Source: an uncultured Alphaproteobacteria bacterium (lineage in GTDB: Bacteria; Pseudomonadota; Alphaproteobacteria; CAAHEQ01; UBA3637). From it: DNA of 64,000 bases. A program made the translations under genes and the position numbers. Shown here one piece after another: positions 3,505 through 39,436 of this stretch (position 1 is its first letter; each line of letters opens with the position of its first letter). Under the pieces are notes generated by a model. It did not search any database. It saw nothing but the letters and a program-made list of their open reading frames with translations, and had not been told where the DNA came from. Location: positions 37,270 through 101,269 of the forward strand of contig CAKPYQ010000001.1 in the NCBI GenBank assembly GCA_934203105.1. The letters are read 5' to 3'.

Positions 3505-3561
3505 TTTTTCCTTTTATTTTTTACTGGCTATTTAATGCGAAAAAGGATATCATCTTTTCAT

Positions 3562-22318: not shown

Positions 22319-22396
<78 letters not shown>

Positions 22397-22405
22397 ATAA
22401 AGATA

Positions 22406-22432
22406 AGAGGAAGTTTTGCTTCCTCTTTTTTT
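22406..22432 (+). terminator. rho-independent terminator after the tRNA
   Basis: aagaggaag tttg cttcctctt is a perfect 9-bp stem followed by a T-run. Confidence 0.65.
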
Positions 22433-22644
22433 AACATTTAAATACATGGAATGCGATTATATTTAGATGAACTAAATCCAACAGCAGGAAAACACAAAGA
22501 TTTATTACTTCCAGAGTGCGGAGTATTTTGTGAATTGGAAAAAGTATATTTTTAGTACCAGGCTTGAAGACATAATTCTAATATATACTGATCTCTATGA
22601 GGTTATTTTTTCCTACAATATGTTAATAACGGTTATTAAAATCA

Positions 22645-25600
22645 TTACACGTCCATCACGTTGTCTGTCCAAAGTTCGCATTGTGTCATAACTGTTTGAA
22701 CGGCATCATCAACACCTTCTGGGGGATATTTATGCTTTTTTAACAATTTTTTTATCATCATACGCATTTTGGCGCGCGCTGTTTCTTTTTTCTGCCAATC
22801 TATTGTTTTATTTTTGCGCAAAGTTTCGGTGAGTTCTTTTGTAATAGCAATTAATTCATCATTTTCATAAAAATCTTTAACTGCTTGTGGACGAGCCAAT
22901 GCATCATAAAAAGCTGCTTCTTCAGCATTAAGCCCTAAATCATCACCTTCCTTTTGTGCTGTGGCAATTTGTTTTGCCAAATTAAGCAGCTCCTCAATAA
23001 CTTGTTCATTAGTCAACATACCGTTCAAATAGCGGTTCATAGATTCTTGTATCATTTCACTGAACTTTTCCGAACGCACAACATTGGTATGGCGATAAAT
23101 AGAAATCTGCTCAGCTATTAATTTTTTCAACAATTCGACCGCCAAATTTTTTTCTTTCATCTTGGACACTTCATCCAAAAATTTCGGGTCAAACAGCGAA
23201 AATTCTTCTTTTATATCTGAAAACAGATTAATTACACCATCGCTTTTTATACTCTGCCCCAACAGCTCGTTGATACGCTTATTCATTTCCGGCAAAGATA
23301 TTTTCTTTTGCCCACCGCCTTCGGTAAAACGCAAAATCATAATACGAACAGCTTCCATAAATGCTGCCTCAATACGCAATATTTCTTCAACAATAGATGC
23401 GCAAAGAGACAAAGCCTGATGTAACATAAGGGCTTGCTTAATAAATGCGTCTTTTTCTTTATTTTTCTCTCTGGCAATAATAAAGTTTGCGGCACCGCTT
23501 ATCAATCTTGCTCGGACTAAATTTGAACCGGTAGCAAATTCGCTATAATCAAAACCGTGCAATAAATCGCGACAAACCTGCAATTTTTCTTTGAATTTAT
23601 TATATGCTGTGGTAGCAATATCCATATTACCATAGTTCTTTCTGTCGCGGAGAGTATAATCATTCATCGCCTTTTTCAAAGCACTGGCAATACCGATATA
23701 ATCAACCACCAAACCGCCTTCTTTATCTTCAAATACGCGATTAACACGAGCAATCGCCTGCATCAGGTTATAACCTTCCATCGGTTTATAAATATACATT
23801 GTCGCAAGCGATGGTACATCAAAACCGGTTAGCCACATATCAACAACAATCGCAATCTTCAAAGGATCATTATTATCTTTAAATTTACGTGCTAAATCTT
23901 CCTTATGAGATTTATTACCAATAATAGCTCGCCAATCTTCTGGATCATCATTACCGGATGTCATAACCACAGCAACTTTATCTTTCCACGCGGGGCGTAA
24001 CTCCAAAATTCGATGATAAATTTTCAATGCAATCGGACGAGAATAAGCTACAATCATAGCCTTACCGGTTAATAAATTTTCGCGGTAATTTTCGTAGTGA
24101 TCCAAAATATCGCAGACAAGCGAATTGATAGTATCATCGTCGCTTAATATTGTTTCCATTTGCCCGAGTTGTTTTTTACTTTTTTCAATGACCTCTGGAT
24201 CGGCATTTTGTGCCATTAAATCATATTCAGCATCAATCAGTTGTAAAATTTCCGGTTTTAAATGAAGTTTTATCACGCGGCTTTCATAATAAACCGGACG
24301 CGTTGCACCATCTTCTACTGCTTGTGTCATATCGTAAACATCGATATAATCGCCAAATACCTCTCGCGTGTTGCGGTCATCAAGAGAAAGCGGTGTCCCC
24401 GTAAAGCCAATATATGTCGCATTTGGCAGAGAATTACGAATAATTCGTGCCGTTCCGACTTTGATATTTCCTTTTTTATCTATCTTTTCAGACAAGCCAT
24501 ATTGACCGCGGTGCGCCTCATCAGCCATAACGATAATATTCCGTCGCTCTGACAGTGGCTCAACTGCTTCCTCAAACTTTTGCATCGTGGTAAAGAAAAT
24601 ACCATTGGCTTTGATACCATTCAAAAGCTGTTTCAAATGTTCTCGGCTTGTTGCTTGCACCGGTTCTTGGCGCAAAAAATCTTTGCATTTAGCAAATTGC
24701 GTATAAAGTTGGTCATCTAAATCGTTACGATCTGTAATAACTACTATTGTCGGGCTGTTTAATGCGCTTTGCAGTAAATGAGCATAAAATACCATAGAAA
24801 GAGATTTGCCACTACCTTGCGTGTGCCAAAAGACACCGCCTTTACCATCAGTTTGCGTGGCGCGTTTGGTCGATTCGATCGCTTTTTTTACCGCAAAGTA
24901 TTGATGATAACCAGCCAAAATTTTTGACCTCCCCTTATTTTCGGCAGAAAAGCAAATAAAATTTTTCAAAATATCCAGCAGGCGCGATTTTTCAAAAATC
25001 CCATTAAAAAATGTATCAAATTGCGCATATTTGGTGTTTTCGTAGGAACCATCAACCGTTTTCCATTCCATAAAACGAGTCTCATCAGAAGTAATCGTTC
25101 CGGCTTTAGATACCGCCAAATCACTCATGACACAGATTGCATTATATATAAACATAGACGGGATTTCGTGCTTATAGTTTTGAATTTGCCGATATGCTTC
25201 CGAAGCATCTGTTTCTTCTCGCGACGGAGATTTCAATTCCATCAGCACAAGTGGCAACCCGTTGATAAACAGCAACACATCCGGACGTTTTTCGCTGTTT
25301 TCAATGAAGGTCCATTGGTTGGCAACAATGAAGGAGTTATTATCCGGATTTTCATAATCAATCAGATAAACAATCGTATCGCGTGGCTCGCCTTTTTCAG
25401 TATAGCGGACGGTAATGCCATTTTGCAAATAATCCATAAAAATGGCATTTTTTTGCGTCAATTCGGCATTTTCAAAATTTTTGAGCTTAAAAAGAGCCTC
25501 GTTTATTGCCTCATCCGGCAAATCTGGATTGATTTGATGTAGAGAATTTGTCAGTATCGGTTCATACAATGGCGAAGTAAAATCCCGCGTTTCCACATCC

Positions 25601-25698
25601 GGCCCATAAACATGTGTATAGCCAATTTCTTCAAACAACTCAATAATCGACTTTTCATACGCTTCTTCATTTACTGGATTGATGAAAGTATTTGTCAT
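22645..25698 (-). CDS. hsdR: type I restriction enzyme R subunit (HsdR)
   Basis: 1017 aa. The SF2 helicase motif I is HTQGSGKSLSM and the DEAH motif II is VMADEAHRGQ. The N-terminal nuclease region and the size are typical of HsdR. The start overlaps the upstream gene by 4 bp. Confidence 0.88.
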   Translation of the reverse strand: MTNTFINPVNEEAYEKSIIELFEEIGYTHVYGPDVETRDFTSPLYEPILTNSLHQINPDLPDEAINEALFKLKNFENAELTQKNAIFMDYLQNGITVRYTEKGEPRDTIVYLIDYENPDNNSFIVANQWTFIENSEKRPDVLLFINGLPLVLMELKSPSREETDASEAYRQIQNYKHEIPSMFIYNAICVMSDLAVSKAGTITSDETRFMEWKTVDGSYENTKYAQFDTFFNGIFEKSRLLDILKNFICFSAENKGRSKILAGYHQYFAVKKAIESTKRATQTDGKGGVFWHTQGSGKSLSMVFYAHLLQSALNSPTIVVITDRNDLDDQLYTQFAKCKDFLRQEPVQATSREHLKQLLNGIKANGIFFTTMQKFEEAVEPLSERRNIIVMADEAHRGQYGLSEKIDKKGNIKVGTARIIRNSLPNATYIGFTGTPLSLDDRNTREVFGDYIDVYDMTQAVEDGATRPVYYESRVIKLHLKPEILQLIDAEYDLMAQNADPEVIEKSKKQLGQMETILSDDDTINSLVCDILDHYENYRENLLTGKAMIVAYSRPIALKIYHRILELRPAWKDKVAVVMTSGNDDPEDWRAIIGNKSHKEDLARKFKDNNDPLKIAIVVDMWLTGFDVPSLATMYIYKPMEGYNLMQAIARVNRVFEDKEGGLVVDYIGIASALKKAMNDYTLRDRKNYGNMDIATTAYNKFKEKLQVCRDLLHGFDYSEFATGSNLVRARLISGAANFIIAREKNKEKDAFIKQALMLHQALSLCASIVEEILRIEAAFMEAVRIMILRFTEGGGQKKISLPEMNKRINELLGQSIKSDGVINLFSDIKEEFSLFDPKFLDEVSKMKEKNLAVELLKKLIAEQISIYRHTNVVRSEKFSEMIQESMNRYLNGMLTNEQVIEELLNLAKQIATAQKEGDDLGLNAEEAAFYDALARPQAVKDFYENDELIAITKELTETLRKNKTIDWQKKETARAKMRMMIKKLLKKHKYPPEGVDDAVQTVMTQCELWTDNVMDV

Positions 25699-26546
25699 TT
25701 TTTCTCCTTTAATCCTTTAAGAAATTCAGCCATTTTGTTTTTCCGTTCTTTATTATCTTTAGCTAAAACACAGAATAAAAGTAATTGATAAATTTCGTCA
25801 TATAGGTTTTCCAATTCGTTATCACTCATCTTAGCAATAATTTCTTTTTTATCTGCACCCTCTTTGTTATTATGACGTATATGAGCATTGTTAATCATTC
25901 CGCGAACGGTGGTAAAATAGGAATTGAAATCTGGTATACCGTCATCCAGCAATGGTTCATATTCTGTCGCAATGGTTAGTAATAATTTTCTTTTTTCCTC
26001 TAATTGTCCTTTTAACGATGCATGATGATATTTCAAAATAGCCATTGCTGTATCTTTTGATGAAATCTCTGCCACTGCAAACGCGGCAGGATCTTTAGGA
26101 ATAAGTAAAATTTTCTCTTCATCTTCAATACAATATTCTTTGTAATTCAAACGCTCTAAAATTAGATTCAAATTTTGCAATAGCATAATATATTCTTTGG
26201 AGCTTTGAAAATTCATATTTTGTCCCAGTCCAACTTTATTTTGAGCAAGTCGTATTAGATTAATAAAATATTCCAAAGTTAAAATTAAATCATCTTGTTC
26301 GTTCGGAAGTTTACCAATTTTCAGTTTTTTCCGAATTTCTGCACAATTTAAACATCCATTTCTTTGTTTCCATCCATGCAGTAAAAATGTATCAACAATC
26401 CCCTCAATATTTAATTGTCCTTGATGAAAATTCATTGGGTTTACATATGTGAACATAGGCAATGCAAAAAGTTTGATAATCTTTTTCATTTCTGCATTTA
26501 TATCATATTCACTGGCTAAAATTTCAAAGATATTTTTACGAGTCAT
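25695..26546 (-). CDS. hypothetical protein embedded between hsdS and hsdR (possible HEPN-like R-x6-H motif; function unknown)
   Basis: 283 aa, AT-rich, no P-loop, so it is not a PrrC-type ATPase. Its only motif-like feature is RGMINNAH near the C-terminus. The gene overlaps both neighbours by 4 bp. Confidence 0.3.
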   Translation of the reverse strand: MTRKNIFEILASEYDINAEMKKIIKLFALPMFTYVNPMNFHQGQLNIEGIVDTFLLHGWKQRNGCLNCAEIRKKLKIGKLPNEQDDLILTLEYFINLIRLAQNKVGLGQNMNFQSSKEYIMLLQNLNLILERLNYKEYCIEDEEKILLIPKDPAAFAVAEISSKDTAMAILKYHHASLKGQLEEKRKLLLTIATEYEPLLDDGIPDFNSYFTTVRGMINNAHIRHNNKEGADKKEIIAKMSDNELENLYDEIYQLLLFCVLAKDNKERKNKMAEFLKGLKEKK

Positions 26547-27754
26547 GGAGTATCCTTTTGTTCTGAAATATCCACATTATCGACATTGATTTCACCAGAC
26601 ATGAGTTTGGGTAATAATGTGTCACGAATAGAGGCTAATTTAATATTTTCTAAGGCATTAGCTGCTATTTTATGCATTAGAGGAGATACAATATTTGTAA
26701 ACTTTTTAACTGTATCTGGCAATGGAATAAATATTGGTAATCCTAGTAATTCACTTTGATTTAGACCTGGTTGAGCAGCTTTACTACACGCTAGCGTGTG
26801 CAGATAATTTTTATTTGTTTCATAACTTAAACAAAAGTAAATAAAAAATTGTGATGATATGTTTGATTTTCCACGTATAATAAACACATGCTCATTAACC
26901 GCACAAACTTTATGAGGAAATCCATCTAATGCAAGAGATACTTTTCCTGTGTATGCACCATCTTTATATAATAAAACATCCTCCGATAAGACCTTTCCTC
27001 GTTTCATTTGCTTGTAAAATTCTTCACTAATAAATTTTTCTTTACTGTAATCATATACACCAAATTTTTCAATATTTTCAGCTCCGATACTAGGTATTCC
27101 TTGACTTAGAGCTCCTCCTTTTGGTCGGCTACCACTTTCTGCAATATTAACAATATCTGCTAAAATGCCATTATTTTCAGAGCCATAAATAGATTTAAAC
27201 AGAGCCTGAGCCTGTTGTTCTAAATTATTATTTATCCTATTATTCAGCTCGATTTTATCATCCAGCACCCCCAACACCCTTGCAATCTTCTTCTGAATAT
27301 CAAGCGGAGGAACTGTGAATTCTAAATTTTTAACTTGTGTACCAGATATTTCTGCAAAAGTTGATCCTGATCCCATTCCTACAATATATTCAATGTTATT
27401 TTTTAGTAAATAATAGAAAAATTCAGAACAATATCCTTTTTTTAACACAAGACTTTTAAATCCTTGATTAGTACAAACATCATTTTTTGCAATCGCTACA
27501 TATCCAATAGGAGCTCGACTTGTTAATAAAACACTACCTTTAGGTAACATATGAGCACTACTATTTTGAAGGCCTTCTTGAGCTATATTTCGTTCACCTT
27601 TAGAAATGTATCGACTATTATAACCTGATAAATCTTTAGGAGTTAGCCATGGGATATCTCCATTCCAAAAATCATAATTTTTAGTACTAGGAGTGCCTCC
27701 ACCTATGACTTCACAAACATCACTTAATTTAATCTTCTGCCAATTACTATTCAT
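26543..27754 (-). CDS. hsdS: type I restriction-modification specificity subunit (HsdS), two target-recognition domains
   Basis: 403 aa with a duplicated TRD architecture and conserved central and C-terminal coiled regions. It is very AT-rich, as is typical of hsdS. Confidence 0.7.
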   Translation of the reverse strand: MNSNWQKIKLSDVCEVIGGGTPSTKNYDFWNGDIPWLTPKDLSGYNSRYISKGERNIAQEGLQNSSAHMLPKGSVLLTSRAPIGYVAIAKNDVCTNQGFKSLVLKKGYCSEFFYYLLKNNIEYIVGMGSGSTFAEISGTQVKNLEFTVPPLDIQKKIARVLGVLDDKIELNNRINNNLEQQAQALFKSIYGSENNGILADIVNIAESGSRPKGGALSQGIPSIGAENIEKFGVYDYSKEKFISEEFYKQMKRGKVLSEDVLLYKDGAYTGKVSLALDGFPHKVCAVNEHVFIIRGKSNISSQFFIYFCLSYETNKNYLHTLACSKAAQPGLNQSELLGLPIFIPLPDTVKKFTNIVSPLMHKIAANALENIKLASIRDTLLPKLMSGEINVDNVDISEQKDTP

Positions 27755-28784
27755 CGGCTACCTCCAAATTTTCATCATCTATGCGAATTTCTTCTATTGA
27801 AAAAGAATAATCATCACAACTATTAATCCATAGTGTCATATCAAGTTCATCTGTAAAGGATAAAGCAGAATTCGTATCAACGGTTATTTCTGCTCGTATC
27901 ATAACCTCATATTCTAAAAATATTTCATCTTCATGGTGTTGTTCTATATTGTATATATTTTTTACAATAAATTTGCTTAAAGACAAATATTTTGTATCTC
28001 CGATAATTTCATTAGAAAATGATCTTAAATCATTAAGAATATTATCTGAATTTAGATATTCTTTTATCTCGGAGTATTCTTCAGGATATTGAGGTGGAAT
28101 AGGATATGTGTCATCTTTATCTTTTGCTATTTGATCTAATTTTGAGTTTAAAATGTCTTCATTTTTTGAATTAATAAAAATAATTTCTTGATTTGGAAAT
28201 AACTTTTTATACTCTTCTTTTAACTCTTCATTGAACATTTTATCATTTGTATATAGGATGATATTTGTATCCGGATGTTCTTTTTTGTATTCTAAAATTG
28301 TTTCCCAAAGTAATGCATCTTTAAAACCCTTATCTGAGTTATTTTCTTTTCCCTCAAAAGGTGGTCTTTTATCAAATGCTCTATTTATAAGATTAAAATA
28401 ACATTTATCAGATGGAAAATTTAATTCTACAATGTTAATAGGCTTATTTTTTAATGCATTTTTATAGGCATTAATGTTTTCATCAAGATAAGTATCATAA
28501 TTTTTTGTTGTATCAACTTTATACGAATGGAAAGGAAATTTATGTTTTTTAAGCATATCTTCAAATTCTTTAACTTTTTTATGGTATGCTATAATATTTT
28601 GTTTTTTAGTTTCAGACCATACAATTTGAGGAATAGCAATTGATACAATATCATAAATATCTAACTCTTCAATGCGTGTCATGAAATTGTCAAGAGTACC
28701 ATTAAAAGAAAAATCTGTAAAATCACAGCATCGAGTATAGTCCTTATATAAAGCATTTGTATCAAAAATAAGTAGATAGTCCAT
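27747..28784 (-). CDS. hypothetical protein embedded in the R-M operon; N-terminal region with PIN-like acidic-residue pattern (tentative)
   Basis: 345 aa. The N-terminus LLIFDTNAL resembles the first PIN strand with its conserved Asp. Later acidic or threonine positions (VWSETKK, ILYTNDKMF with T-x-D) are compatible with a PIN-like fold carrying insertions. There is no database support. Confidence 0.3.
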   Translation of the reverse strand: MDYLLIFDTNALYKDYTRCCDFTDFSFNGTLDNFMTRIEELDIYDIVSIAIPQIVWSETKKQNIIAYHKKVKEFEDMLKKHKFPFHSYKVDTTKNYDTYLDENINAYKNALKNKPINIVELNFPSDKCYFNLINRAFDKRPPFEGKENNSDKGFKDALLWETILEYKKEHPDTNIILYTNDKMFNEELKEEYKKLFPNQEIIFINSKNEDILNSKLDQIAKDKDDTYPIPPQYPEEYSEIKEYLNSDNILNDLRSFSNEIIGDTKYLSLSKFIVKNIYNIEQHHEDEIFLEYEVMIRAEITVDTNSALSFTDELDMTLWINSCDDYSFSIEEIRIDDENLEVADE

Positions 28785-28792
28785 TTTAACCT

Positions 28793-29203
28793 CTATTCAT
28801 AAATTACTCTTTTTGCAATCGATATAAGTTTCTGTAATAAATGCTTTAATTTTTCTCTATATTCATTATGTTCTCTACCAGTATAATACCCGCTTATTGC
28901 AGAATGAGGCAGTGGAATATAGTTTTGATTAAATGGACTTATATAATTCTTTGTCGGATTAAAATAATCACTTATCCAATTATTACGTGGCATACAATAT
29001 CCAAAATTTTCAGATAAATATGAAGTATAATTTTGTAAATACGCTTCATCCATAAGTTTAATTGTTGATGAGGCATATTTTTCAAATGCTTCATATAAAT
29101 CTTTATCTAAATGTTCATTGGCTAATAAATCTATTCCTTTACCTAGGGCTTCAAGCAATTCATTTAGAGCCTTTTGTTTATTAGGATCCAACATAATCAT
29201 CAC
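28793..29203 (-). CDS. hypothetical protein embedded in the R-M operon
   Basis: 136 aa with no recognised motif. It is translationally coupled (ATGA overlap) to the upstream small membrane protein gene. Confidence 0.3.
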   Translation of the reverse strand: MMIMLDPNKQKALNELLEALGKGIDLLANEHLDKDLYEAFEKYASSTIKLMDEAYLQNYTSYLSENFGYCMPRNNWISDYFNPTKNYISPFNQNYIPLPHSAISGYYTGREHNEYREKLKHLLQKLISIAKRVIYE

Positions 29204-29469
29204 TTTCCCTCCGTTGATTTCATTATAATTTCTTCTTCCTTATTATTTTTTTCTTCAGCTTTTTTTATAAGTAATTCATCAAATGTTGTTTTATTTTCCT
29301 TTTGTTCTTCTACAGTTTCAGGATTAAGCTCAGCCCCACCAGGGAGTTTAGTTAAACGAGAAAGAATTTTGCGAATATCATTTTTAAAAATAAAAATACA
29401 TCCACCAACTAAAATAGGCCACGCTAGATGTTCACATAATCCTAATATGAAAGTTTGCCAAGGATACAT
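29200..29469 (-). CDS. small single-TM membrane protein embedded in the R-M operon
   Basis: 89 aa. The hydrophobic helix WPILVGGCIFIF is followed by a charged KE-rich tail. The start is 2 bp after the hsdM stop. Confidence 0.35.
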   Translation of the reverse strand: MYPWQTFILGLCEHLAWPILVGGCIFIFKNDIRKILSRLTKLPGGAELNPETVEEQKENKTTFDELLIKKAEEKNNKEEEIIMKSTEGK

Positions 29470-29471
29470 TT

Positions 29472-30980
29472 TTACATCTCCCAGCCGATGGCTTTCAGTT
29501 TGTTTTTAATCTCTTCTTGCAAAGCATCAGACTGCCTAAACATCTCTGCAAGCTCTCCGGTCAGGCGTTTCATTTTATCTTCAAAAGGTTCACCGTCATC
29601 TTTCTGTTCCTCAATGCCAACATAGCGTCCAGGCGTCAAAATGTAATCCTGTGTCGCAATTTCTGCCGTTGTTGCTACCGCACAAAACCCTTTAACATTT
29701 TCCAACTTTCCTTTTTGAAATGCAGTAAATGTGTCTGCAATCTTTTTAATATCTGCATCCGTAAAATCGCGGTGTTTGCGGTCAACCATGTAGCCCATTT
29801 TCCGCGCATCAATAAAGACTGTTTTACCTTTTTGAGCTTTGTTTTTACTGATAAACCATAACGTTACCGGAATTGTTACACTATAAAACAGTTGTGGTGG
29901 TAGAGCGATAATACCCTCTATCAAATCGGCCTCAATAATATTTTTGCGAATTTCACCTTCACCGCTTGTTTGGGTAGAAAGCGCACCATTTGCAAGGACT
30001 AAACCGATTTTCCCATTAGGTGCTAAGTGATGTATCATATGTTGAATCCACGCATAGTTTGCGTTTCCTGCCGGTGGAATTCCATATTTCCAACGCACAT
30101 CATCTTGTAACTTATCCTGTCCCCAATTAGAAAGGTTAAACGGAGGATTAGCCATAATAAAATCAAACTTTTCATGCGGGTGCAGGTCATTAAAAAATGT
30201 ATCTGCCTGATATGGCCCGAAATCAGCATCAATGCCGCGAATAGCCATATTCATCTTGGCCATTTTCCATGTATCAGCATTGGATTCTTGTCCATAAACC
30301 GATATGTGGTCGCGGTTTCCGCCATGTGCTTGTAAAAATTTAACCGACTGAACAAACATACCACCGGAACCACAACAAGGATCATAAACGCGGCAATTAT
30401 CAAATGGTTTCAAAACCTCGACAATGGTTTTAACAATGCTTTGTGGCGTATAAAACTCACCGCCTTTGGTGCCTTCATATGCCGCAAATTGTGCAATACA
30501 GTATTCATAAGTTCTACCGAGTAAATCTCTATCTCCGTTGGTATCAGACATATCAATATTGTTTGTAAAAAGGTCAACAACATTGCCTAAAACACGTTTA
30601 TCAAGATCTTGATTGGCATAATTTTTAGGTAATACATTTTTAAGCGATTTATTTTCTGCTTCAATCGCTCGCATAGCATCATCAATAATAATGCCGATTT
30701 CCGGAGTGTGTGCCGCTTCAGCAATTTTACTCCAACGTGCGGCCTCAGGAACATAGAAAATACCTTCTTCAATATATGCATCTTTGTCGTTTTCAAAACC
30801 ATCACCTTCGGCGACAAGCTGATTATAGCGCTTTTCAAAGGCCGCAGAAATATAACGCAAAAAGATAAGTCCAATAATTACTTTTCGGTAATCTGCCGCA
30901 GGAATATGTCCCCAAAGTTCACAAGCTGCACCCCAGATTTGCTTTTCAAAACCTAAATTTGCATTATTTTTACCAGCCAT
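29472..30980 (-). CDS. hsdM: type I restriction-modification methyltransferase subunit (HsdM), N6-adenine
   Basis: The N-terminal HsdM domain (WGAACELWGHIPAADY) is present. The SAM motif is DPCCGSGGMF. The catalytic NPPF lies in IMANPPFNLSNW. Confidence 0.88.
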   Translation of the reverse strand: MAGKNNANLGFEKQIWGAACELWGHIPAADYRKVIIGLIFLRYISAAFEKRYNQLVAEGDGFENDKDAYIEEGIFYVPEAARWSKIAEAAHTPEIGIIIDDAMRAIEAENKSLKNVLPKNYANQDLDKRVLGNVVDLFTNNIDMSDTNGDRDLLGRTYEYCIAQFAAYEGTKGGEFYTPQSIVKTIVEVLKPFDNCRVYDPCCGSGGMFVQSVKFLQAHGGNRDHISVYGQESNADTWKMAKMNMAIRGIDADFGPYQADTFFNDLHPHEKFDFIMANPPFNLSNWGQDKLQDDVRWKYGIPPAGNANYAWIQHMIHHLAPNGKIGLVLANGALSTQTSGEGEIRKNIIEADLIEGIIALPPQLFYSVTIPVTLWFISKNKAQKGKTVFIDARKMGYMVDRKHRDFTDADIKKIADTFTAFQKGKLENVKGFCAVATTAEIATQDYILTPGRYVGIEEQKDDGEPFEDKMKRLTGELAEMFRQSDALQEEIKNKLKAIGWEM

Positions 30981-31233
30981 TTTATCTCTCTTCGCATTGA
31001 AACTATTAATAGATTGATATTCAAAAGTACTTTTTGTAGTATATTAATTTTCAATAAAAAAGTCAAAGAAAATGTAAAGACTTACGCTAAAATCTTTATA
31101 CTTTTGAGATAAATATCGTTAAACCACTGAGAGTCGACAAAATAAAAAATACAATTATTAATGAAGTTATGTTTAAAATGCAAATTTAGGATGCCTTTAA
31201 AATCAAAACTCATCCAATTTAACGTCTTGCCTT

Positions 31234-31701
31234 TTAGTCATTGTAACAATCCGTATTTTTCAGCACTTCTTTGGAATAAGAATTCTTATAAAGATTCATA
31301 TACATATCTGCAAAATCAAGGGTATAGTTTAATTGAAAAATTATAATAAATAATGCAACATGCAACGATGATATATATAGGAAATTATTATAGCTATAAT
31401 TAAAAGACAACACATTTAAAAAGAATAAAATAAGTAAAGAAAATAGAGACATCTTTAAGAATTTTTTATTATCACTAATAAAAATCTTAAACATATTACG
31501 CTTTTTCATATAGAGATTAATGTTTTGATTAGCATAGGCAGCCAAAAGAAATGACAGTGAAAAGGCAAAAATAATAGAAACACATGTAATTGCATCAGAA
31601 AGCAGGTTATCTTTTAAAGGAAATCCCAAACTTATTATTAACAAGAATAGCAATATCCATGTTCTTATTCTACATTTTAGCAAAAATTTCTTCGATTTCA
31701 T
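31234..31701 (-). CDS. small polytopic membrane protein (about 4 TM), unknown function, overlapping the upstream gene
   Basis: The start is placed at MKSKKF, preceded by the strong RBS aaaaggaagaaggatatt. There are four hydrophobic helices. The gene is very AT-rich and overlaps the upstream 251-aa gene by 32 bp in a different frame. Confidence 0.4.
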   Translation of the reverse strand: MKSKKFLLKCRIRTWILLFLLIISLGFPLKDNLLSDAITCVSIIFAFSLSFLLAAYANQNINLYMKKRNMFKIFISDNKKFLKMSLFSLLILFFLNVLSFNYSYNNFLYISSLHVALFIIIFQLNYTLDFADMYMNLYKNSYSKEVLKNTDCYND

Positions 31702-32425
31702 AATATCCTTCTTCCTTTTCAAATTCAAAAATTTCCTTTGCCACAACGCTTTGTTCATTAATAGAAATAAAACCATCAGAGCTTTCCCCTTTTATATTGA
31801 AACTTTTTATGTATGAAGGAGACATTAATTTCTCGTATAATTTTTTTATATACTTAACATTAAGCGCTCTTTTAAAATCCATTTTTACAACGGTTGTCTC
31901 GGGTTTTTCTTTTTCTTCTAAATCATCACCCCAATGAGGATTCAAAAATTCATTTATAAATAAGTTGTTTGTTGCGGTAATAGAAATTGTTTCTATTGAT
32001 TTCACCTGTTTGATAAAATCATCAATAGAAGTAGAAACGGCCAACAAATCACAAGAAAAATTCTTGTCCGTTTCATGCAATAAATTCAAAATTATATTTC
32101 TTTTATTATGATCTGAACTCAATACCTTATTTTGATAAATCACAAATATAAACTGATGCGTCATATGAACAATTTCATCTGACAAGACGCTGTCGTCATA
32201 AATCCTTTGATTCCTATTATAGCATCTATTGGGTTTTGATTTTCCATATGACACTAAAAAAACGATTTTATCTTGATCCATCATATGACGTATCGTATAT
32301 GTGGTTTCACGCAATGGGTAATCTATGATTTCTTTGTTTTGCAGTTTTTCTTTTAAAATTCGTGTTCCTGCTCCTAAAAGGTCAACACATTCCGGAATAT
32401 AACTAAACATACGCACAGAGCTCAT
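31670..32425 (-). CDS. hypothetical cytosolic protein (251 aa), AT-rich, unknown function
   Basis: No recognisable catalytic motif by eye. A glutamate-rich C-terminus (EFEFEKEEGYYEIEEIF) overlaps the downstream membrane-protein gene. Confidence 0.4.
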   Translation of the reverse strand: MSSVRMFSYIPECVDLLGAGTRILKEKLQNKEIIDYPLRETTYTIRHMMDQDKIVFLVSYGKSKPNRCYNRNQRIYDDSVLSDEIVHMTHQFIFVIYQNKVLSSDHNKRNIILNLLHETDKNFSCDLLAVSTSIDDFIKQVKSIETISITATNNLFINEFLNPHWGDDLEEKEKPETTVVKMDFKRALNVKYIKKLYEKLMSPSYIKSFNIKGESSDGFISINEQSVVAKEIFEFEKEEGYYEIEEIFAKM

Positions 32426-32587
32426 CGTTCTAATCCTTTCAATATTTTTGGTTTCTTATCTATCTCCACTAATGTTTGATATTTTAACAATTTATTCTAT
32501 CGTATCAACATTTGATAAAAAGGTCAAGTAAATATCGAAATTTGATAAAATTTTTATGTTTTTTTGAAAACACATCAATATCAATTG

Positions 32588-33487
32588 TTACAAACAAATA
32601 TTGATTAAAAGATTTTTCTTTTCCTGATAACTTTTTACTAAACTCAAAACAAAATCGTTAATGACTTCCGCCAAGGGTAATTTCCCTTTGTCAGTATAAA
32701 TAACCTGCGCAGTAAGACCGGCAAGCACTCTTTTTATTTCTGGTGTTAATTGCCCCATAAATGACCCCATTTTTAAAATATCCAAAACAGCCTGATCTGC
32801 AAAGGGGCGAAATGGTTCAATCAAATCATCAACAAGTGGCATTGTATTTGCCGATTGGCAATGCTTTAATCCCAAATAAGGTAATAACCCGTTAGCACAG
32901 ACGCTGCGCGCAACCATTGCCCGTAAAATTGTATAAGCATAATTTAAAAGCATATTTATATCTGCCGCATTGCGATTGCGAATAAAATCAGAACCAAATA
33001 ATTCATTAAAATAAAGATGCGCCGCCTGCCCTTCATTATTTTGCAGGTCATCGTTTTTAACCGTTTTTGACAACATTTGTAAACGCACTTTTATCGTCGA
33101 GTTCGGATGAACAAAAGCTAATAACTTAGCTTGATTGCTGATCTTCATTTGCACAATTTTCTTCCACAAATTTTTACGCAAGGACTCCGGCAAGGCCGTT
33201 TGCGCTTTAATTCTGGCCGACGTTAACCAATGCCCGACAATCGGTAAAGTTATTGCGGCAGGCATATATTTATCATTGCAAAAAATAAGGCATGCTTGAT
33301 TTTCACATAAAGCATTAACGATATTTTTTGAAATCAAAACATTATGTGCGGAAATAATTAAACATAAAATGCTATCCAACGGGATCTGATTAACTTGATT
33401 GGTCCGTACATCTGTAACAATTAAAAAACCTTTCGATAAAGAAAGTTTGAAATGATCAGACGATATTTCTATTACCCGTTTTAACAT
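32588..33487 (-). CDS. cas1: CRISPR-associated endonuclease Cas1, type II-family-like, apparently solo (no cas9/cas2/array in the window)
   Basis: 299 aa. Long collinear similarity to type II Cas1 as I recall it from Neisseria: NEGQAAHLYFNELFG..F.RNRN...INMLLNYAYTILRAMVAR......LLPYLGLKH......PLVDDLIEPFRPFADQ. The putative metal-binding E, H and D positions are present. GC content is lower than in the adjacent core genes. Confidence 0.8.
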   Translation of the reverse strand: MLKRVIEISSDHFKLSLSKGFLIVTDVRTNQVNQIPLDSILCLIISAHNVLISKNIVNALCENQACLIFCNDKYMPAAITLPIVGHWLTSARIKAQTALPESLRKNLWKKIVQMKISNQAKLLAFVHPNSTIKVRLQMLSKTVKNDDLQNNEGQAAHLYFNELFGSDFIRNRNAADINMLLNYAYTILRAMVARSVCANGLLPYLGLKHCQSANTMPLVDDLIEPFRPFADQAVLDILKMGSFMGQLTPEIKRVLAGLTAQVIYTDKGKLPLAEVINDFVLSLVKSYQEKKNLLINICL

Positions 33488-33490
33488 TAA

Positions 33491-34756
33491 CTACTTTAAT
33501 CCTAAATTGTCGGCGGTCAGCAAACCGGCGCCGGATAAAACCGAAAAATAAGCCGATATTTGCGCATGCTTTGCCCGCGTCAACGATACCTTCGAATCTA
33601 ATAATTCCTGCTCGGCATTCAATACATCTAATACCGTACGACGCCCGCGTTCCTGAGCGTCTCTGACGCCTTCCAACGCTAAACGATTTGCATTGATGCG
33701 CATTTGCGCTGTTTCTATCGCTGCACCTTGCGCTTGGTAAATATTCCACGCTTGACGCAACTTTTCTAAAACAATCCGCTGGGTGTGAGTGATATTTTCT
33801 TTTAAAGCAGATGCTTCATACTCGGCCTTATCCGTCCGTGCAAAAGCCGTTCCTTTATCATACAACGGCACCGTCAAATAAATGCCGATCCGGCCGTCGG
33901 AAACTTCGTCAATCACAGGAACATCTTTTAATTTCACGGCAGACGCTTTGATATCAATCGACGGCATATAGCTTTCACGCGACACCGTAACGTTGGATTT
34001 TGCCGCTTCGTATCCCGCGGCGGCAGCCAAAATAGCCGGATGCGATTTTAGAGCTGTCTTTTCGGCGTCATTAATTGACTTTGGGAAAAATTGCCGTGTA
34101 CCGTTTAATTCAATATCTGTATAATTTTCTTGCAACGATCCGTAAATTCGGCGGAACGTTTCCAAAGCATTTTCATATCCGGCATTGGCATCAATAACCG
34201 CATACTTTGCCAATTCTAAACGCGCTTTTGCTTGGGCTAAATCTGTTTTAGTCAGCACGCCGACTTTTTCTTTTTGCTCACACAAACTGAAATACTCTTC
34301 CAATACCTTTTGGTTATTTTTATCCAAATTCAATACTTCGCGTGCATTCAAAACATTGATGTAAGCATTAACGGCTTGCAAAAACACATCTTGTTCGGTC
34401 GCATATAAATTCGCCTTTTCCAAAACCGCCATACTTTTGGCTGCGTCAATTTGCGCCGTTGTTGAAAAGCCGTGAAAAATATTTTCCGATAACGTTATGC
34501 CAACCTGTTTTTGCGTATAGTCAAAATCCGTGTTATTCAATTTTGTTTTTGCACGTGCTATGCCGGCCGTTGCCCCGACGGACGGTTGCCAACCTGTACG
34601 CGCTAAATCAACTCCGGCCGATGCGCTTTTGACTTTCTGCCGCGCGGATAAAATCTGCGGGTTGGTTTGATAAACTTGCTGCAAAGCCGAATACATATCC
34701 GCATTTGCCGGCACACAAAATAAAAAGCAAATTAAAAACAGTAAATACTTTTTCAT
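33491..34756 (-). CDS. TolC-family outer-membrane efflux protein
   Basis: A signal peptide is followed by the two-repeat alpha-helical and beta-barrel OEP architecture (YQTNPQILSARQKVKSA...; repeated coiled segments). It is the last gene of the ABC-2 efflux operon. Confidence 0.8.
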   Translation of the reverse strand: MKKYLLFLICFLFCVPANADMYSALQQVYQTNPQILSARQKVKSASAGVDLARTGWQPSVGATAGIARAKTKLNNTDFDYTQKQVGITLSENIFHGFSTTAQIDAAKSMAVLEKANLYATEQDVFLQAVNAYINVLNAREVLNLDKNNQKVLEEYFSLCEQKEKVGVLTKTDLAQAKARLELAKYAVIDANAGYENALETFRRIYGSLQENYTDIELNGTRQFFPKSINDAEKTALKSHPAILAAAAGYEAAKSNVTVSRESYMPSIDIKASAVKLKDVPVIDEVSDGRIGIYLTVPLYDKGTAFARTDKAEYEASALKENITHTQRIVLEKLRQAWNIYQAQGAAIETAQMRINANRLALEGVRDAQERGRRTVLDVLNAEQELLDSKVSLTRAKHAQISAYFSVLSGAGLLTADNLGLK

Positions 34757-34765
34757 TTTTTTCTC

Positions 34766-35857
34766 CTATAAAGTCGTTTTAAAGCGCTTCACCGCCCAAA
34801 GGGCTATCAAAAATCCCGAAACAATCATCACCCAAGCATGCGCGAAAAAATAGTTCCAATCCGCTCCTTTCAAGATAATGTTGCGCACCAAATAAGTATA
34901 GTGCGTCAACGGATTAACATACGCAATCCATTGCAAAACAAGCGGCATATTTTCGCGCGGAAACAACGCTCCCGATAACATCAACGCCATAAAAGCAACA
35001 ATCATCAAGCCCAACATCGCTTGTTGTTGTGTTTTGGTATAATTGGCCAACCAAACAGCAATCGCACACGCCGGAAAGCAAAACACCAAAAACGACGCCA
35101 TAAACATAAAAAACGATCCCGTGAAAGGCAATGAAAAGAAAATCACACCCACCAGCTGAATCAAAAACATATTGATTAACGCCACCAAAATATACGGCAA
35201 TGTTTTACCCAAAATAATATCATACTTTGAAATCGGCGCCGAAATTAAAGTTTCAATCGTGCCGTTTTCTTTTTCTTTGGTAATCGAAATACTGATTAAA
35301 GTCAACAAAGACATAAACACCAAAACCGCCATAATCGCCGGCACCAAAAACCATTGCGTATCCAATTCCGGATTAAACAAAACACGCACGTTAAAACCAA
35401 TCGGCCGAACGCCTTGCGTGTGCGTTGCATCAGATAATACATTTACAATAATGCCTTGTAAATACGCTTCAATGCTTTGCGCTTTGAGCACATTCGTCGA
35501 ATCGATCAATATTTGTAATTGCCCTTCCCCGCGCATCAAAGATTTTGTCAGTCCATCTTTGGGCGCAATCAATGCCACATCAGCTTCGCCGGCTTGCACA
35601 GCCTCTACTGCGCTTTTTTCCAACGGATCAATACGCACAAACCAACCGGAACCGATTGCGTGATTATAAACGCGCTCCATAATCACATCGTTTGGAATGG
35701 TGTCAACAGCCAAACGCAAATTGCGGGCTTCCATTGTAATGGCTTGGCTTAAAACAATCACCTGAACCACCGGCATCAGCAAAATCGCCACCAGCATAAC
35801 CGGATCACGCAGCAATGCAATTAACTCTTTTTTGATAAAGCCCCACAAAGTGTTCAT
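34766..35857 (-). CDS. ABC-2 family transporter permease (YbhR/YbhS-like)
   Basis: An N-terminal TM is followed by a large periplasmic loop and then 5 C-terminal TM helices. The gene is adjacent to a second paralogous permease. Confidence 0.75.
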   Translation of the reverse strand: MNTLWGFIKKELIALLRDPVMLVAILLMPVVQVIVLSQAITMEARNLRLAVDTIPNDVIMERVYNHAIGSGWFVRIDPLEKSAVEAVQAGEADVALIAPKDGLTKSLMRGEGQLQILIDSTNVLKAQSIEAYLQGIIVNVLSDATHTQGVRPIGFNVRVLFNPELDTQWFLVPAIMAVLVFMSLLTLISISITKEKENGTIETLISAPISKYDIILGKTLPYILVALINMFLIQLVGVIFFSLPFTGSFFMFMASFLVFCFPACAIAVWLANYTKTQQQAMLGLMIVAFMALMLSGALFPRENMPLVLQWIAYVNPLTHYTYLVRNIILKGADWNYFFAHAWVMIVSGFLIALWAVKRFKTTL

Positions 35858-36975
35858 TCTATTGTCCTTTTAAACCTGAAAACACACGCAAGCATCAGCA
35901 CAATCGCCTGCACAGACAAAGCCGCAAACGGGATCCATAAATCCGCTATTGTACTGGCTTTTAAAAACTGGTCGCGCGATATTTCAACATAAAAACGCGC
36001 CGGAAACAAAGCCGATACCCATTGATAAATCCGTGGCATATACTCGATCGGGAAAATAAAGCCGGACAATAAAGCGGTCGGCAACAACCCGATAATAGCG
36101 GCATATTGAACCGCAACTTGTTGTTCGTGACTGACAACCGAAATATAAAGCCCCAAAGCCAAATACCCCAAAATAAATAAAATCGTCGCAATCGTTAAGG
36201 TGATATAGCTGCCGACAAACGGAACACCAAAAACCAATCGCGCCGCCAAGAAAACAATAATAAATCCGCAAAAGCTTAAAAACGCATAAGGAAACAACTT
36301 ACCAAACATAATTTCAAGCGATGTCACCGGCGTTGACAATAACATTTCCATTGAGCCTTGTTCCCATTCTTTGCATACCGTCAGAGCGGTCAACATAATC
36401 GCAACCAATGCAATAATCACCGCAGAGATGCCGGGGATTGCAAACCATTTTGTATTCAACTCCGGATTAAATAAATAACGCGGTTTGAAAACCAACAAAG
36501 CATCTTTGGATATCGGAATATCTTTGATTTTATAAATCGCGTTGACGTTAATTGTGTTTAAATAATTCATAATAGCCGATATGGACGAATTATCCGCGCC
36601 GTCCAATAAGATTTGAACTTGTCCCGTACGCCCCGCCATAATTTCTTTTTCAAAGTTGGGCGGAATGACCAACATCATTTTGGCTTTTTCGGCAACTAAA
36701 TCGTCTTGACCTTTCGTCGGCGTTTGAACAACATAAGGCTTAAAATATCCCGAACTGCCGAACGTTTCAACCAATTTTCGTGAACTTTGCGTTCTGTCGT
36801 GATCCATATAAGCCAAATCAATCGATTTGACATTAAACTCGATCGAATTGCCCAAAATCAGCACGATCATCAACGGCAACAACAACGCCATCATTAACGT
36901 AAACGGATCGCGAAAGATATGTTTAAATTCTTTGCTGAACACAGCGTGCGCACGGCGATAAGAAAAATATTTCAT
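35854..36975 (-). CDS. ABC-2 family transporter permease (YbhS/YbhR-like)
   Basis: Same architecture as the downstream ABC-2 permease, with 4-bp overlaps on both sides. Confidence 0.75.
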   Translation of the reverse strand: MKYFSYRRAHAVFSKEFKHIFRDPFTLMMALLLPLMIVLILGNSIEFNVKSIDLAYMDHDRTQSSRKLVETFGSSGYFKPYVVQTPTKGQDDLVAEKAKMMLVIPPNFEKEIMAGRTGQVQILLDGADNSSISAIMNYLNTINVNAIYKIKDIPISKDALLVFKPRYLFNPELNTKWFAIPGISAVIIALVAIMLTALTVCKEWEQGSMEMLLSTPVTSLEIMFGKLFPYAFLSFCGFIIVFLAARLVFGVPFVGSYITLTIATILFILGYLALGLYISVVSHEQQVAVQYAAIIGLLPTALLSGFIFPIEYMPRIYQWVSALFPARFYVEISRDQFLKASTIADLWIPFAALSVQAIVLMLACVFRFKRTIE

Positions 36976-37877
36976 CTGTTTTTTCCTTCCACCTGACGGA
37001 TAAAGACGTCCTCTAACGACGGGTTAATTTTTTCAACTTCAAAATCGGATTGAAGACGCTTTAAATCAGCATTATCTTTTAAAATAATATGAAAGTGTTG
37101 ACCGTACGGTTCCCACATTTCAAACAAAGCTTTATCCGGCAAAACAACCTTGTCCGTCTTGGGCGTCAAGTTATATAACTGTTTTGTAAAAGTTTTTGCT
37201 TTTAAGTTTTCGGGTGAATCCAACGCAATTAACTGACCGGCACGCATCAGCGCTATTCGGCCGCAGTTTTCGGCTTCGTCCATATAATGAGTTGTTACAA
37301 AAACGGTCTTGCCCGTTTTGGCCAACGCTTTAATCAATTGCCAAAAACGATAGCGTGCCGTCGGAGCAACACCGGCTGTCGGCTCGTCCAAAAAGACAAC
37401 CTGCGGATTATGCAACAACGACACACACAAAGCTATTTCCTGTTTAATGCCGGTCGGCAATGCTTTGACTACCGTTGATAACTTTTCCTTAAAACCGATA
37501 AAGTCCAATAATTTTTGCCGTTGCAGCTCGTACGCTTTTTTGTTTAAATGATGCAATGCGGCCGCAAAATCCATATTTTCTTTGATCGACAAATCATCGT
37601 ATAAAGTAAAGTGCTGCGACATATATCCGACTTTTGATTTAATCAGGTTTTCTTTGCCCGCTACAAACTCTTCATTATCGATTTTAACTTGGCCTTCACT
37701 GGCTAAAAGCAAGCCGCACAAAACGCGAATTGTCGTTGTTTTACCGGCGCCGTTTGCGCCCAAAAATCCGAATATTTCACCACGCGCAACCGAAAAAGAA
37801 ACATCTTTTACCGCATAAAAATCACCAAAGCGGACAGATAAATGATGCACATCAACAACATAAGGATTGCTTGTCAT
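36972..37877 (-). CDS. ABC transporter ATP-binding protein (efflux, YbhF-like half)
   Basis: Walker A GANGAGKTT, signature LSTVVKALPTGIKQE-like, Walker B VVFLDEPT. Confidence 0.85.
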   Translation of the reverse strand: MTSNPYVVDVHHLSVRFGDFYAVKDVSFSVARGEIFGFLGANGAGKTTTIRVLCGLLLASEGQVKIDNEEFVAGKENLIKSKVGYMSQHFTLYDDLSIKENMDFAAALHHLNKKAYELQRQKLLDFIGFKEKLSTVVKALPTGIKQEIALCVSLLHNPQVVFLDEPTAGVAPTARYRFWQLIKALAKTGKTVFVTTHYMDEAENCGRIALMRAGQLIALDSPENLKAKTFTKQLYNLTPKTDKVVLPDKALFEMWEPYGQHFHIILKDNADLKRLQSDFEVEKINPSLEDVFIRQVEGKNR

Positions 37878-38602
37878 TTCGCCCCTCCGCGTGATAGGAA
37901 AAATTCATCAAAGTTTTTGACTTTTTCTTGCAAAAGCAATGCCTTTGGCTCACCTAAACCCAGTACTTTACCTTGCTCCATCAAAACGACTTGCCCGCAT
38001 CTTTCGGCTTCGTCCATATAGGCGGTTGTCATAATCACTAAAATTCCCTGATTCACCGACGTGTGCAACATATCCCAAAACTCACGACGCGAAATCGGAT
38101 CAACACCGTTGGTCGGCTCGTCCAACAACATCACCTTGGGCGATCGCAACAAAGCACACATCAACCCTAATTTTTTATACATACCGCCCGACAATTTACC
38201 CGCCGGACGATCCAAAAATTTGTCCAATCGGGTCAATTGCAACAACTCTTTTTTCTTTTTGGCATATTCTTCGGGATCGATGCCGTATAAATCTTGGAAA
38301 AAATTCAAATGCTCCTCGATCGATAAATCGGCGTACAAGCTTTGCGTTTGAGGCATATAAGCAATGTTTTGACGAAAATCATCAAAACGCGTTTTCACCC
38401 CGTTCATAAAATAGGATATTTCGCCTGCCGTCGGCTTTAACAGTTGCAAAATCAAGCGAAATAACGTTGTCTTACCAGCGCCGGCAGGACCGATAATCCC
38501 GTAAAGTTTACCCGTTTCAAAGTGCATAGACACATCGTTCAGCGCTTTTGTTTCGCCGAAATCTTTTTTAATATGCGATATGTCCAAAGCAACGTTAATC
38601 AT
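37874..38602 (-). CDS. ABC transporter ATP-binding protein (efflux, YbhF-like half)
   Basis: Walker A GPAGAGKTT, signature LSGGMYKKL, Walker B VMLLDEPT. Confidence 0.85.
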   Translation of the reverse strand: MINVALDISHIKKDFGETKALNDVSMHFETGKLYGIIGPAGAGKTTLFRLILQLLKPTAGEISYFMNGVKTRFDDFRQNIAYMPQTQSLYADLSIEEHLNFFQDLYGIDPEEYAKKKKELLQLTRLDKFLDRPAGKLSGGMYKKLGLMCALLRSPKVMLLDEPTNGVDPISRREFWDMLHTSVNQGILVIMTTAYMDEAERCGQVVLMEQGKVLGLGEPKALLLQEKVKNFDEFFLSRGGAK

Positions 38603-39338
38603 TAAACAGCGCGCTTTCGATTGTCATTCCTGACTTTAACACCAAATCTGGATTTTCAAATTGAACTTTAACCCCGTAAACCAAGCGCGTCCGCTCTTGC
38701 CTTGTTTGTACATTTTTGGGTGTGAATTCGGCTTCTTCGTTGATTTTGATAATCCGTCCGGTAAAGGTCTTATCTCCGGCTTCCGGCAAAATGCCCACGA
38801 CTTTTTGCCCCACTTTTAAACGATACAGCTCGTCATGCGGCACATAAAAATACGCCCATATATCATAGGGATTGGCAATCGACAACAACGTTGTTCCCGC
38901 ACCGACAACTTCGCCTTTTTCACGGAACTTTGTAATGACAACACCATCAATCGGCGATTGCACCTGACACCAAGCAAGCTTTAAATCATTATCGCTTTTG
39001 TTGCGTTGCAACACATCGAATTCGGCCTTTGACATATGCCCTTTTTTCACCAAAGCTTCTGCACGAGCGTAATCATTATCGATTTGTTTGGCAAGCACTT
39101 TATAAACGTCACAGCTCATTTGCAAAACGACCTGCCCTTTTTTCACAAAATCCCCTTCGGATACCGGCAAATCCGTAATATCAGAAGCCACTTTTGATGA
39201 CAAAATAACTTTTGTCGTCTCCAACGTCCCCGCATAGCGGAACGGTTCAGCAAACAGCCAATATTTTGCAAGCCAAGCGCCCGTTGCGACAAGCGTTAAA
39301 GCCACCGCCCCGATAATTAAATTTTTCTTTGTAATCAT
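38595..39338 (-). CDS. HlyD-family periplasmic adaptor (membrane fusion protein, YbhG-like)
   Basis: An N-terminal TM anchor is followed by biotinyl/lipoyl-like hairpin segments (VVLQMS...SPIDGVV) and a coiled-coil. The start is chosen at MITKKN. Confidence 0.7.
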   Translation of the reverse strand: MITKKNLIIGAVALTLVATGAWLAKYWLFAEPFRYAGTLETTKVILSSKVASDITDLPVSEGDFVKKGQVVLQMSCDVYKVLAKQIDNDYARAEALVKKGHMSKAEFDVLQRNKSDNDLKLAWCQVQSPIDGVVITKFREKGEVVGAGTTLLSIANPYDIWAYFYVPHDELYRLKVGQKVVGILPEAGDKTFTGRIIKINEEAEFTPKNVQTRQERTRLVYGVKVQFENPDLVLKSGMTIESALFND

Positions 39339-39436
39339 AGTTTTTCTCCTTATCTTTTGGATATTATAAACAAGCAAAAGCAAAGAGTAAAGACTTTATC
39401 TTTAAAAAAAGCCACTTTTCATAAAAATGTAAAGCA

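Follow-up and report, generated by a model that had tools for sequence, protein, structure and literature searches.

A stretch of 64,000 nucleotides (nt) from an uncultured alphaproteobacterial lineage, represented so far only by metagenomes (contig CAKPYQ010000001.1, positions 37,270 to 101,269; hereafter the window), carries a cas1 gene of type II CRISPR (short palindromic repeats, clustered and regularly interspaced) systems that stands without cas2, cas9 or a repeat-spacer array. We propose that this solo cas1 is probably all that survives of a type II CRISPR-Cas locus lost from a defence-island hot spot between a TolC-family gene and a tRNA-Met gene. In other species the relatives of the gene that we examined stand in complete loci, those of the closest clade at the edge of a layout that needs only one contiguous loss to leave cas1 alone, and within the species cas1 itself is repeatedly lost or cut. 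The features at the centre of the analysis, with positions in the window, are the following.

32588..33487, minus strand: solo type II cas1, 299 amino acids (aa), catalytic E152/H209/D221/E224; TIGR03639 251.7 bits, 34 invariant columns
33488..33490, minus strand: 3 nt (TTA) separating the TAG stop of TolC from the cas1 ATG, a junction kept in every conspecific haplotype, including those with only a 16-nt cas1 stub
33491..34756, minus strand: TolC-family outer-membrane channel (TIGR01844, 255.6 bits), final core gene of an efflux operon and left island border; haplotypes are collinear up to here
32426..32587, minus strand: AT-rich intergenic region 3' of cas1, 162 nt, the first 49 nt common with haplotype (b) below
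22319..22396, plus strand: tRNA-Met (CAT), right island border, also found at the far island end in contig L012 and at the cut end of contig L037

A type II cas1 without local partners

The 299-aa open reading frame (ORF) runs intact from ATG to stop, without a frameshift, and lies on the minus strand, a correction to an earlier, sequence-only reading of this DNA. Its product scores 251.7 bits against TIGR03639 (cas1_NMENI; curated cutoff 120 bits), with residues 3-283 of 299 matching profile positions 1-277 of 278, as well as 96.1 bits against the Pfam model Cas_Cas1 (PF01867; cutoff 22.3) and 302 bits against the PADLOC model Cas1_II. The earlier reading had described the ORF as collinear with type II Cas1, and the full-length match above cutoff bears this out; the subtype-profile check that it proposed returned the type II model TIGR03639 as the best profile. 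It had also named two outcomes that would speak against it: assignment to a non-Cas1 family, or, joined to a complete cas9-cas1-cas2 locus with an array elsewhere, proof that this copy is a frameshifted pseudogene. All three models assign the protein to Cas1, and the frame is open throughout.

The best matches among solved structures are type II-A Cas1 proteins, headed by S. pyogenes Cas1 4zkj (E = 6e-38), whose Glu/His/Glu align with E152, H209 and E224 of the window protein. Together with D221, these residues are invariant across a 17-sequence alignment, which confirms the retention of catalytic E/H/D positions suggested earlier, and the four are the counterparts of the active-site residues E141, H208, D218 and D221 of E. 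coli Cas1 (PMC4046053). The window protein shares the catalytic Glu/His/Asp/Glu with type II (II-C-like) Cas1 of TIGR03639 and with the solved homologues from S. pyogenes (4zkj) and E. faecalis (5xvn). Judged by these profiles and residues, the window gene is a true type II Cas1, a member of the TIGR03639/PF01867 family.

The search for CRISPR partners covered the 64-kb window and the 10-kb flanks of conspecific loci. Queried by tblastn with four related proteins each for Cas9 and Cas2, the window revealed neither cas9 (best E = 0.17) nor cas2 (best E = 0.16), and tblastn with proteins from the relatives' loci L007, L008, L011, L023, L025 and L028 found no remnants of cas9, cas2 or a WYL-domain gene. 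Neither a repeat-spacer array nor a trans-activating CRISPR RNA (tracrRNA) was found there by TRF, a direct-repeat search and Rfam, whose models matched one tRNA in the 64 kb and nothing more. No partner gene was found within 10 kb in any conspecific locus. Within the window, tblastn, TRF, repeat search and Rfam thus agree with the earlier statement that no cas9, cas2 or CRISPR array lies nearby. Locally, then, what defines a type II adaptation module is missing, for the locus has neither cas2 nor cas9 nor an array. Unlike the cas1 of type II cas operons, which it otherwise resembles, the window gene has no cas2, cas9, tracrRNA or array in the 64 kb and begins 3 nt after an efflux gene.

This junction is as the earlier reading gave it, with the cas1 ATG placed 3 nt past the TAG of the TolC gene that ends the efflux operon; the AT-rich spacer that it described downstream is also present, its length measured as 162 nt and not 160. 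On the cas1 strand, the ~990 bp upstream contain no promoter-like site, and TolC and cas1 have no terminator-like site between them. Because of these two negatives and the 3-nt stop-start gap, we consider that cas1 is probably read through from the efflux operon and translated by coupling. The GC content is 0.35-0.37 in cas1, 0.41-0.45 in the efflux operon and 0.25-0.33 in the island beyond cas1. These values and the haplotype borders described below agree with the earlier assignment of cas1, by a GC content below that of the flanking core genes, to the defence island.

Complete loci in other species and a candidate array remnant

A homology search returned an identical protein and a graded series of Cas1 relatives, and gene context was checked for relatives at 67% (P0002), 64% (P0003 and P0132), 54% (P0007), 53% (P0020) and 48% (L001), as well as for three with 34% identity. 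In all 13 of the other-species loci examined, cas2 and cas9 lie beside cas1. Compared with type II Cas1 proteins of complete loci, the window copy is 48-67% identical and collinear over its full length, and the 67% identity to the Cas1 of a complete locus upholds the earlier view that the protein is close to type II, unlike the distant cas1-solo genes.

Within the clade at 48-67% identity the loci have the layout cas1 -> array <- cas2 <- cas9, in which cas1 is alone on its strand (L001, L007/L008, L011/L023, L025/L027 and L028-L030; for example L007:4974-9757). No description of this convergent layout was found in the literature searched. The arrays start 14-75 nt past the cas1 stop and hold 10-24 repeats with a 66-nt period. 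The 36-nt repeat, GTTATAGTTGACCGTCTGATAAATCTCTGATATGAT and close variants (in short form GTTATAGTTGACCGTCT...), is near-invariant although the Cas1 proteins are only 50-67% identical, and it holds a sigma-70-like TTGACC-N17-TATGAT/TATAAT; the hexamers recall repeat-embedded promoters.

Because cas1 forms the edge of such a locus and is its own transcription unit, one contiguous loss, taking array, cas2 and cas9 together, leaves cas1 alone. The sequence-only reading had taken cas9-cas1-cas2 to be the essentially universal form of a type II adaptation module, which is untrue for the gene's own clade. Its premise that a solo state is surprising is weakened in turn, as the cas1 of this clade is normally lone on its strand, with the array between it and cas2-cas9. 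The clade loci lie at unrelated chromosomal sites, and none of them adjoins a TolC gene.

In the closest relative the start of cas1 shares 4 nt with a WYL-domain gene (L007:4033-4977 and L008:2009-2974), an arrangement that suggests regulated or coupled cas1 expression in these two loci; neither the other relatives nor the window have the WYL gene. Synteny was also followed through a SIMPL gene near the L007 locus and was set aside as uninformative, since neither the orientation nor the genes in between agree and the sites of the relatives are unrelated.

We scanned both strands of the window with the clade repeat. The only intergenic match, a weak one, lies after cas1; the hits elsewhere with equal or better scores are 14-19-nt matches within coding regions.

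32499..32530, minus strand: candidate degenerate CRISPR repeat TACTTGACCTTTTTATCAAATGTTGATACGAT, matching 25/33 positions of the clade repeat

The candidate occupies nt 58-89 past the cas1 stop, aligns to positions 4-36 of the clade repeat with two gaps, and has the same place and orientation as the array start in the relatives. Its score was reached by 23 of 2000 mononucleotide and 37 of 3000 dinucleotide shuffles (~1%). The stretch can be read, too, as a promoter-like TTGACC-N17-TACGAT that stands 74 nt upstream of the neighbouring 251-aa ORF. The same spacer holds an internal duplicate at 32503-32554 on the minus strand, TTTTATCAAAT[T/G]T[C/T]GATA, with its copies ~34 nt apart and the first of them inside the 49 nt that haplotype (b) also has; the duplicate could stem from a pair of repeat halves now decayed, or be a site for a regulator.

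Turnover at the TolC/tRNA-Met site within the species

Conspecific contigs have ~98-99% nucleotide identity with the window through the efflux operon and are collinear up to TolC, beyond which they diverge in structure; their haplotypes come from samples and assemblies independent of one another. In sister species, by comparison, LeuS is 84-89% identical. Clustering Cas1 proteins at 90% identity gathered the full-length alleles and two short ones; ERZ28614815, ERZ15610014 and ERZ28613902 are examples of strains with an intact cas1. Four arrangements around cas1 can be told apart.

Haplotype (a), that of the window: TolC, cas1, 251-aa ORF, 155-aa ORF, hsdM
Haplotype (b): full cas1 and the following 49 nt, then a ~1-kb NUDIX cassette replacing the 251-aa ORF
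Haplotype (c): cas1 nt 17-199 exchanged for the NUDIX cassette plus an epimerase fragment; a 225-aa ORF remains
Haplotype (d): cas1 stops after nt 235 (79-aa ORF) and is joined to the same NUDIX cassette

To count these arrangements in a sample that does not depend on cas1, contigs were found by the exact protein of an ABC-2 permease, giving 18 places. Only 4 of the 18 carry an intact cas1, while type (c) occurs in 1 and type (d) in 2. The other 11 keep a 16-nt stub of cas1, followed in 10 by the NUDIX cassette (L033 and seven similar places; L041 and one more) and in one (L037) by a complete cas9-cas1-cas2. The stub, ATGTTAAAACGGGTAA, encodes MLKRV, homologous to the MIKQV of relatives. By this homology, all haplotypes descend from a TolC-cas1 ancestor and the junction is ancestral for the species.

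Disruption of cas1 has thus occurred at no fewer than three (at least 3) different breakpoints within the species. A ~950-bp NUDIX cassette, 98% identical between copies, meets the cas1 region at three breakpoints that differ between strains (L012:11009-11955, L018:4721-5667 and L019:6234-6929), a pattern that, read from these junctions, implies repeated recombination involving the cassette. The sequence-only reading had spoken of a fusion onto the efflux operon. No functional link is implied, as cas1 is lost or cut in most of the cas1-independent conspecific contigs and no TolC-cas1 pairing was seen in another species.

The same site has also held another type II system. In L037 (10911-16077) a complete canonical cas9 (1037 aa)-cas1 (302 aa)-cas2 lies between TolC and tRNA-Met, convergent with TolC. 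Because its Cas1 is only 36% identical to that of the window, this strain, as judged from the proteins, has received another type II system in that position. The repeat of this system, GTTATAGCTTGCTTTCCAAATAAAATATGCTATAAT, is present in one copy in the assembly (10933-10968), and upstream of cas9, at about 15489, a 29/36 anti-repeat marks a putative tracrRNA. The L037 island also holds a short duplicate of the tRNA 3' end (ATTGGTTGC), which could be an att-like scar. Lone repeats of the L037 type stand directly after the 16-nt stub in strains without any cas genes (L033:13511, L041:11446 and L018:4613), and by their sequence and position these are leftovers from the loss of the second system.

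In the window, the variable island from TolC to tRNA-Met spans about 22397-33490 (~11.1 kb). Its other genes and those of the adjoining efflux operon are listed below.

31670..32425, minus strand: 251-aa ORF, in haplotypes (a) and (c), with the NUDIX cassette instead in (b)
31234..31776, minus strand: 155/180-aa ORF, conserved upstream of hsdM in most haplotypes
22645..30980, minus strand: type I restriction-modification (RM) cluster (Pfam, NCBIfam, PADLOC), comprising the next six entries
29472-30980, minus strand: hsdM
29200-29469 and 28793-29203, minus strand: small ORFs
27747-28784, minus strand: PIN_12 protein
26543-27754, minus strand: hsdS
25695-26546, minus strand: 283-aa ORF
22645-25698, minus strand: hsdR
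34766..39383, minus strand: remainder of the efflux operon (TolC excluded), polymorphism omega 0.02-0.05, comprising by profile matches the next three entries
34766-35857 and 35854-36975, minus strand: two ABC-2 permeases
36972-37877 and 37874-38602, minus strand: two ABC ATPases
38595-39383, minus strand: HlyD-type adaptor

The 251-aa, 155-aa and other small island ORFs have no match in Pfam, NCBIfam, PADLOC or PHROGs. PADLOC run on the island reports the RM genes only, and PHROGs reports nothing for the island ORFs without a family.

The cargo between hsdM and hsdS in the type I RM operon differs between strains. In the window (27747-29469) it consists of an 89-aa ORF, a 136-aa ORF and the PIN_12 protein; elsewhere (L012:14252-15736, L031:14253-15227 and L032:14252-15970) DUF6119, DUF3644 or an AAA_15/SMC-like ATPase of 572 aa takes its place. 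The position has the look of a variable slot for accessory defence. Farther away, 3493-5580 encodes a competence protein of the ComEC/Rec2-like kind, with a TIGR00361 match (E = 9e-32) short of the curated cutoff. The host may accordingly be naturally transformable, which would suit frequent exchange of island cargo. Two long ORFs in the window bear internal repeats: a 141-nt tandem repeat (3.5 copies, 84% matches) at 45929-46417 within a 735-aa ORF (44933-47140), and a 15/30-nt repeat (about 22 or 11 copies) at 61628-61967 within a 763-aa ORF (61308-63599). Neither ORF matches an NCBIfam model at E <= 1e-20.

Weighing the origin of the solo cas1

In the explanation that we prefer, a cas1 -> array <- cas2 <- cas9 locus would once have stood at the TolC/tRNA-Met hot spot. 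The contiguous array-cas2-cas9 block would then have been replaced by type I RM genes and ORFs without family match, leaving cas1 intact, to be transcribed by read-through from the efflux operon with its translation coupled to the TolC stop. In type II adaptation, Cas1 requires Cas2, Cas9 and a leader-repeat target. Because these are needed, a lone Cas1 should acquire no spacers; the partnerless protein, probably expressed, would be idle in CRISPR and would persist as a presence/absence polymorphism en route to loss. The sequence-only reading had left two origins side by side. That of a remnant of a decayed locus gains from the relatives in complete loci and from the conspecific losses, and that of a recruited or exapted integrase does not.

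Partial loss of CRISPR-Cas has been reported as common and strain-variable (PMC5294841). The window locus resembles the degraded loci described by Zhang & Ye (2017, PMC5294841) in its strain-level gain and partial loss, and in a leftover cas gene lying in a variable region. Unlike that survey, in which a locus was defined as having at least 3 cas genes, a single cas1 survives here, which the convergent parent layout would explain. The window cas1 belongs with partially degraded CRISPR-Cas loci.

Genes of the Cas1-solo groups 1 and 2 form separate deep Cas1 clades (Krupovic et al. 2014, PMC4046053), and group 2 Cas1 is found with PolB, HNH and HTH genes in self-synthesising transposons, the casposons (PMC4046053). 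Like group 2 (PMC4046053), the window Cas1 retains its catalytic residues; unlike Cas1-solo and casposon Cas1, it is nested in type II CRISPR Cas1, with no PolB and no terminal inverted repeats nearby. Its surroundings are not of the casposon type: they include no polymerase, and the neighbours are TolC, ORFs without family match and type I RM genes. Membership in the Cas1-solo/casposon groups was rejected on the 67% identity to a CRISPR-linked Cas1 and on the type II best profile.

Several observations weigh against simple decay. The window Cas1 keeps 34 of the 34 columns that are invariant in its clade (alignment of the window protein and 16 relatives). In relative-rate tests its lineage is not accelerated against P0003 and P0004, which come from complete loci, and is longer only against P0002 with some outgroups. 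Taken over all alleles, 14 of the polymorphisms in cas1 are nonsynonymous and 20 synonymous; the resulting omega of about 0.19 is far below the neutral expectation (P = 2e-6), which fits continued selection. Pairwise omega among intact alleles is likewise low, at 0.05-0.20, with one pair at 0.63 from only 5 changes; the two commonest intact alleles differ by 10 synonymous and 2 nonsynonymous changes, a ratio of nonsynonymous to synonymous polymorphism (pN/pS) of 0.05, like that of the efflux genes. In favour of decay, cas1 shows a significant nonsynonymous excess over its neighbours (268 synonymous to 35 nonsynonymous; Fisher P = 5e-5), although the comparison is biased upward for cas1, as the loci were picked by distinct Cas1 proteins. 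The candidate repeat, which also counts towards a lost locus, is a weak match, suggestive only as an array remnant, and its similarity to the clade repeat could stem partly from the promoter-like hexamers and not from descent.

The low omega values can be set against those of truncated, non-functional alleles, whose pairwise omega of 0.09-0.53 overlaps the intact range. Because the truncated alleles are equally low, most of the divergence would predate the disruptions and a low omega is not evidence of present function; we therefore rejected dN/dS as proof of it. On this polymorphism, cas1 was constrained through most of its history. Also in line with decay, some alleles alter clade-invariant residues, namely K105E, R227C (two alleles) and D220Y (on a short contig, with possible sequencing errors).

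An intact gene with a complete active site and low omega among intact alleles would also be expected if cas1 still supplied the integrase in trans, either to a relocated array-cas2-cas9 block or to another, cas1-less CRISPR-Cas system elsewhere in the genome. The separation would need no rewiring, given that the clade cas1 is already a separate transcription unit, and remote cas1-cas2 genes serving other loci are known for types I and III (PMC5294841). We nevertheless find this explanation unlikely: neither the window nor the 10-kb flanks of conspecific loci hold a partner, a usable cas1 is missing from most of the conspecific contigs sampled, every type II locus in the PMC5294841 survey had its own cas1-cas2, and the sole conspecific strain with a type II system here (L037) has its own, unrelated cas1. 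The intact active site and an omega of about 0.05-0.2 could also point to exaptation, with cas1 kept for a non-CRISPR role in DNA repair or recombination or for one linked to efflux. The 3-nt stop-start gap and the lack of a promoter-like site in ~990 bp upstream on the cas1 strand fit such a role, as does the age of the TolC-cas1 junction, which is common to all haplotypes. It becomes improbable in view of the fate of the gene, which is lost or broken in 14 of the 18 cas1-independent places where the efflux operon remains intact and strongly constrained. Moreover, no TolC-cas1 pairing exists among the other-species loci examined, nonsynonymous polymorphism in cas1 is significantly above that of the efflux genes, and GC content and haplotype borders assign cas1 to the island and not to the operon.

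Orphan cas genes on mobile elements can act as anti-CRISPRs (bioRxiv 10.1101/2023.06.24.545427), and a dominant-negative Cas1 on a mobile island might hinder adaptation by incoming or resident type II systems. The window gene resembles the orphan viral cas anti-CRISPRs of that study in being a single cas homologue apart from a CRISPR-Cas operon, and it sits in a tRNA-flanked variable island. Those genes, however, lie in phage or plasmid anti-defence clusters, whereas the window cas1 is chromosomal, by core genes and in a defence island, where PHROGs has no hit for the ORFs without a family and PADLOC reports RM genes only. Its active site is kept, nor does it show signs of the inactivation described from anti-CRISPRs derived from Cas proteins, and the haplotype with the complete type II operon (L037) has lost the window-type cas1, so that the two do not coexist; we regard an anti-CRISPR role as very improbable. 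All data being metagenome assemblies, the TolC-cas1 junction might finally be a chimera. To this we give next to no weight, since more than 20 contigs, drawn from different samples and from two assembly sources (ENA and Logan), show the identical junction, with allelic differences on both sides. Taken more broadly, a catalytically competent solo Cas1 under selection, co-transcribed with the efflux genes and serving either a remote cas9-cas2-array in trans or a non-CRISPR DNA transaction, has in our judgement a small chance of being correct. If true, it would be a rare young case of Cas1 outside CRISPR, a parallel, of recent CRISPR origin, to the ancient Cas1-solo genes.

As the remnant of a lost locus, the solo cas1 is an instance of ordinary CRISPR-Cas decay, and a caution against taking an intact orphan cas gene for exaptation. 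The TolC/tRNA-Met hot spot keeps a record, within one species, of how two unrelated type II systems and several RM variants turned over, and could serve the study of how defence islands exchange their cargo. In the clade of type II loci to which this gene belongs, found in uncultured gut and rumen Alphaproteobacteria, the convergent layout would explain the origin of a solo type II cas1 by a single step.

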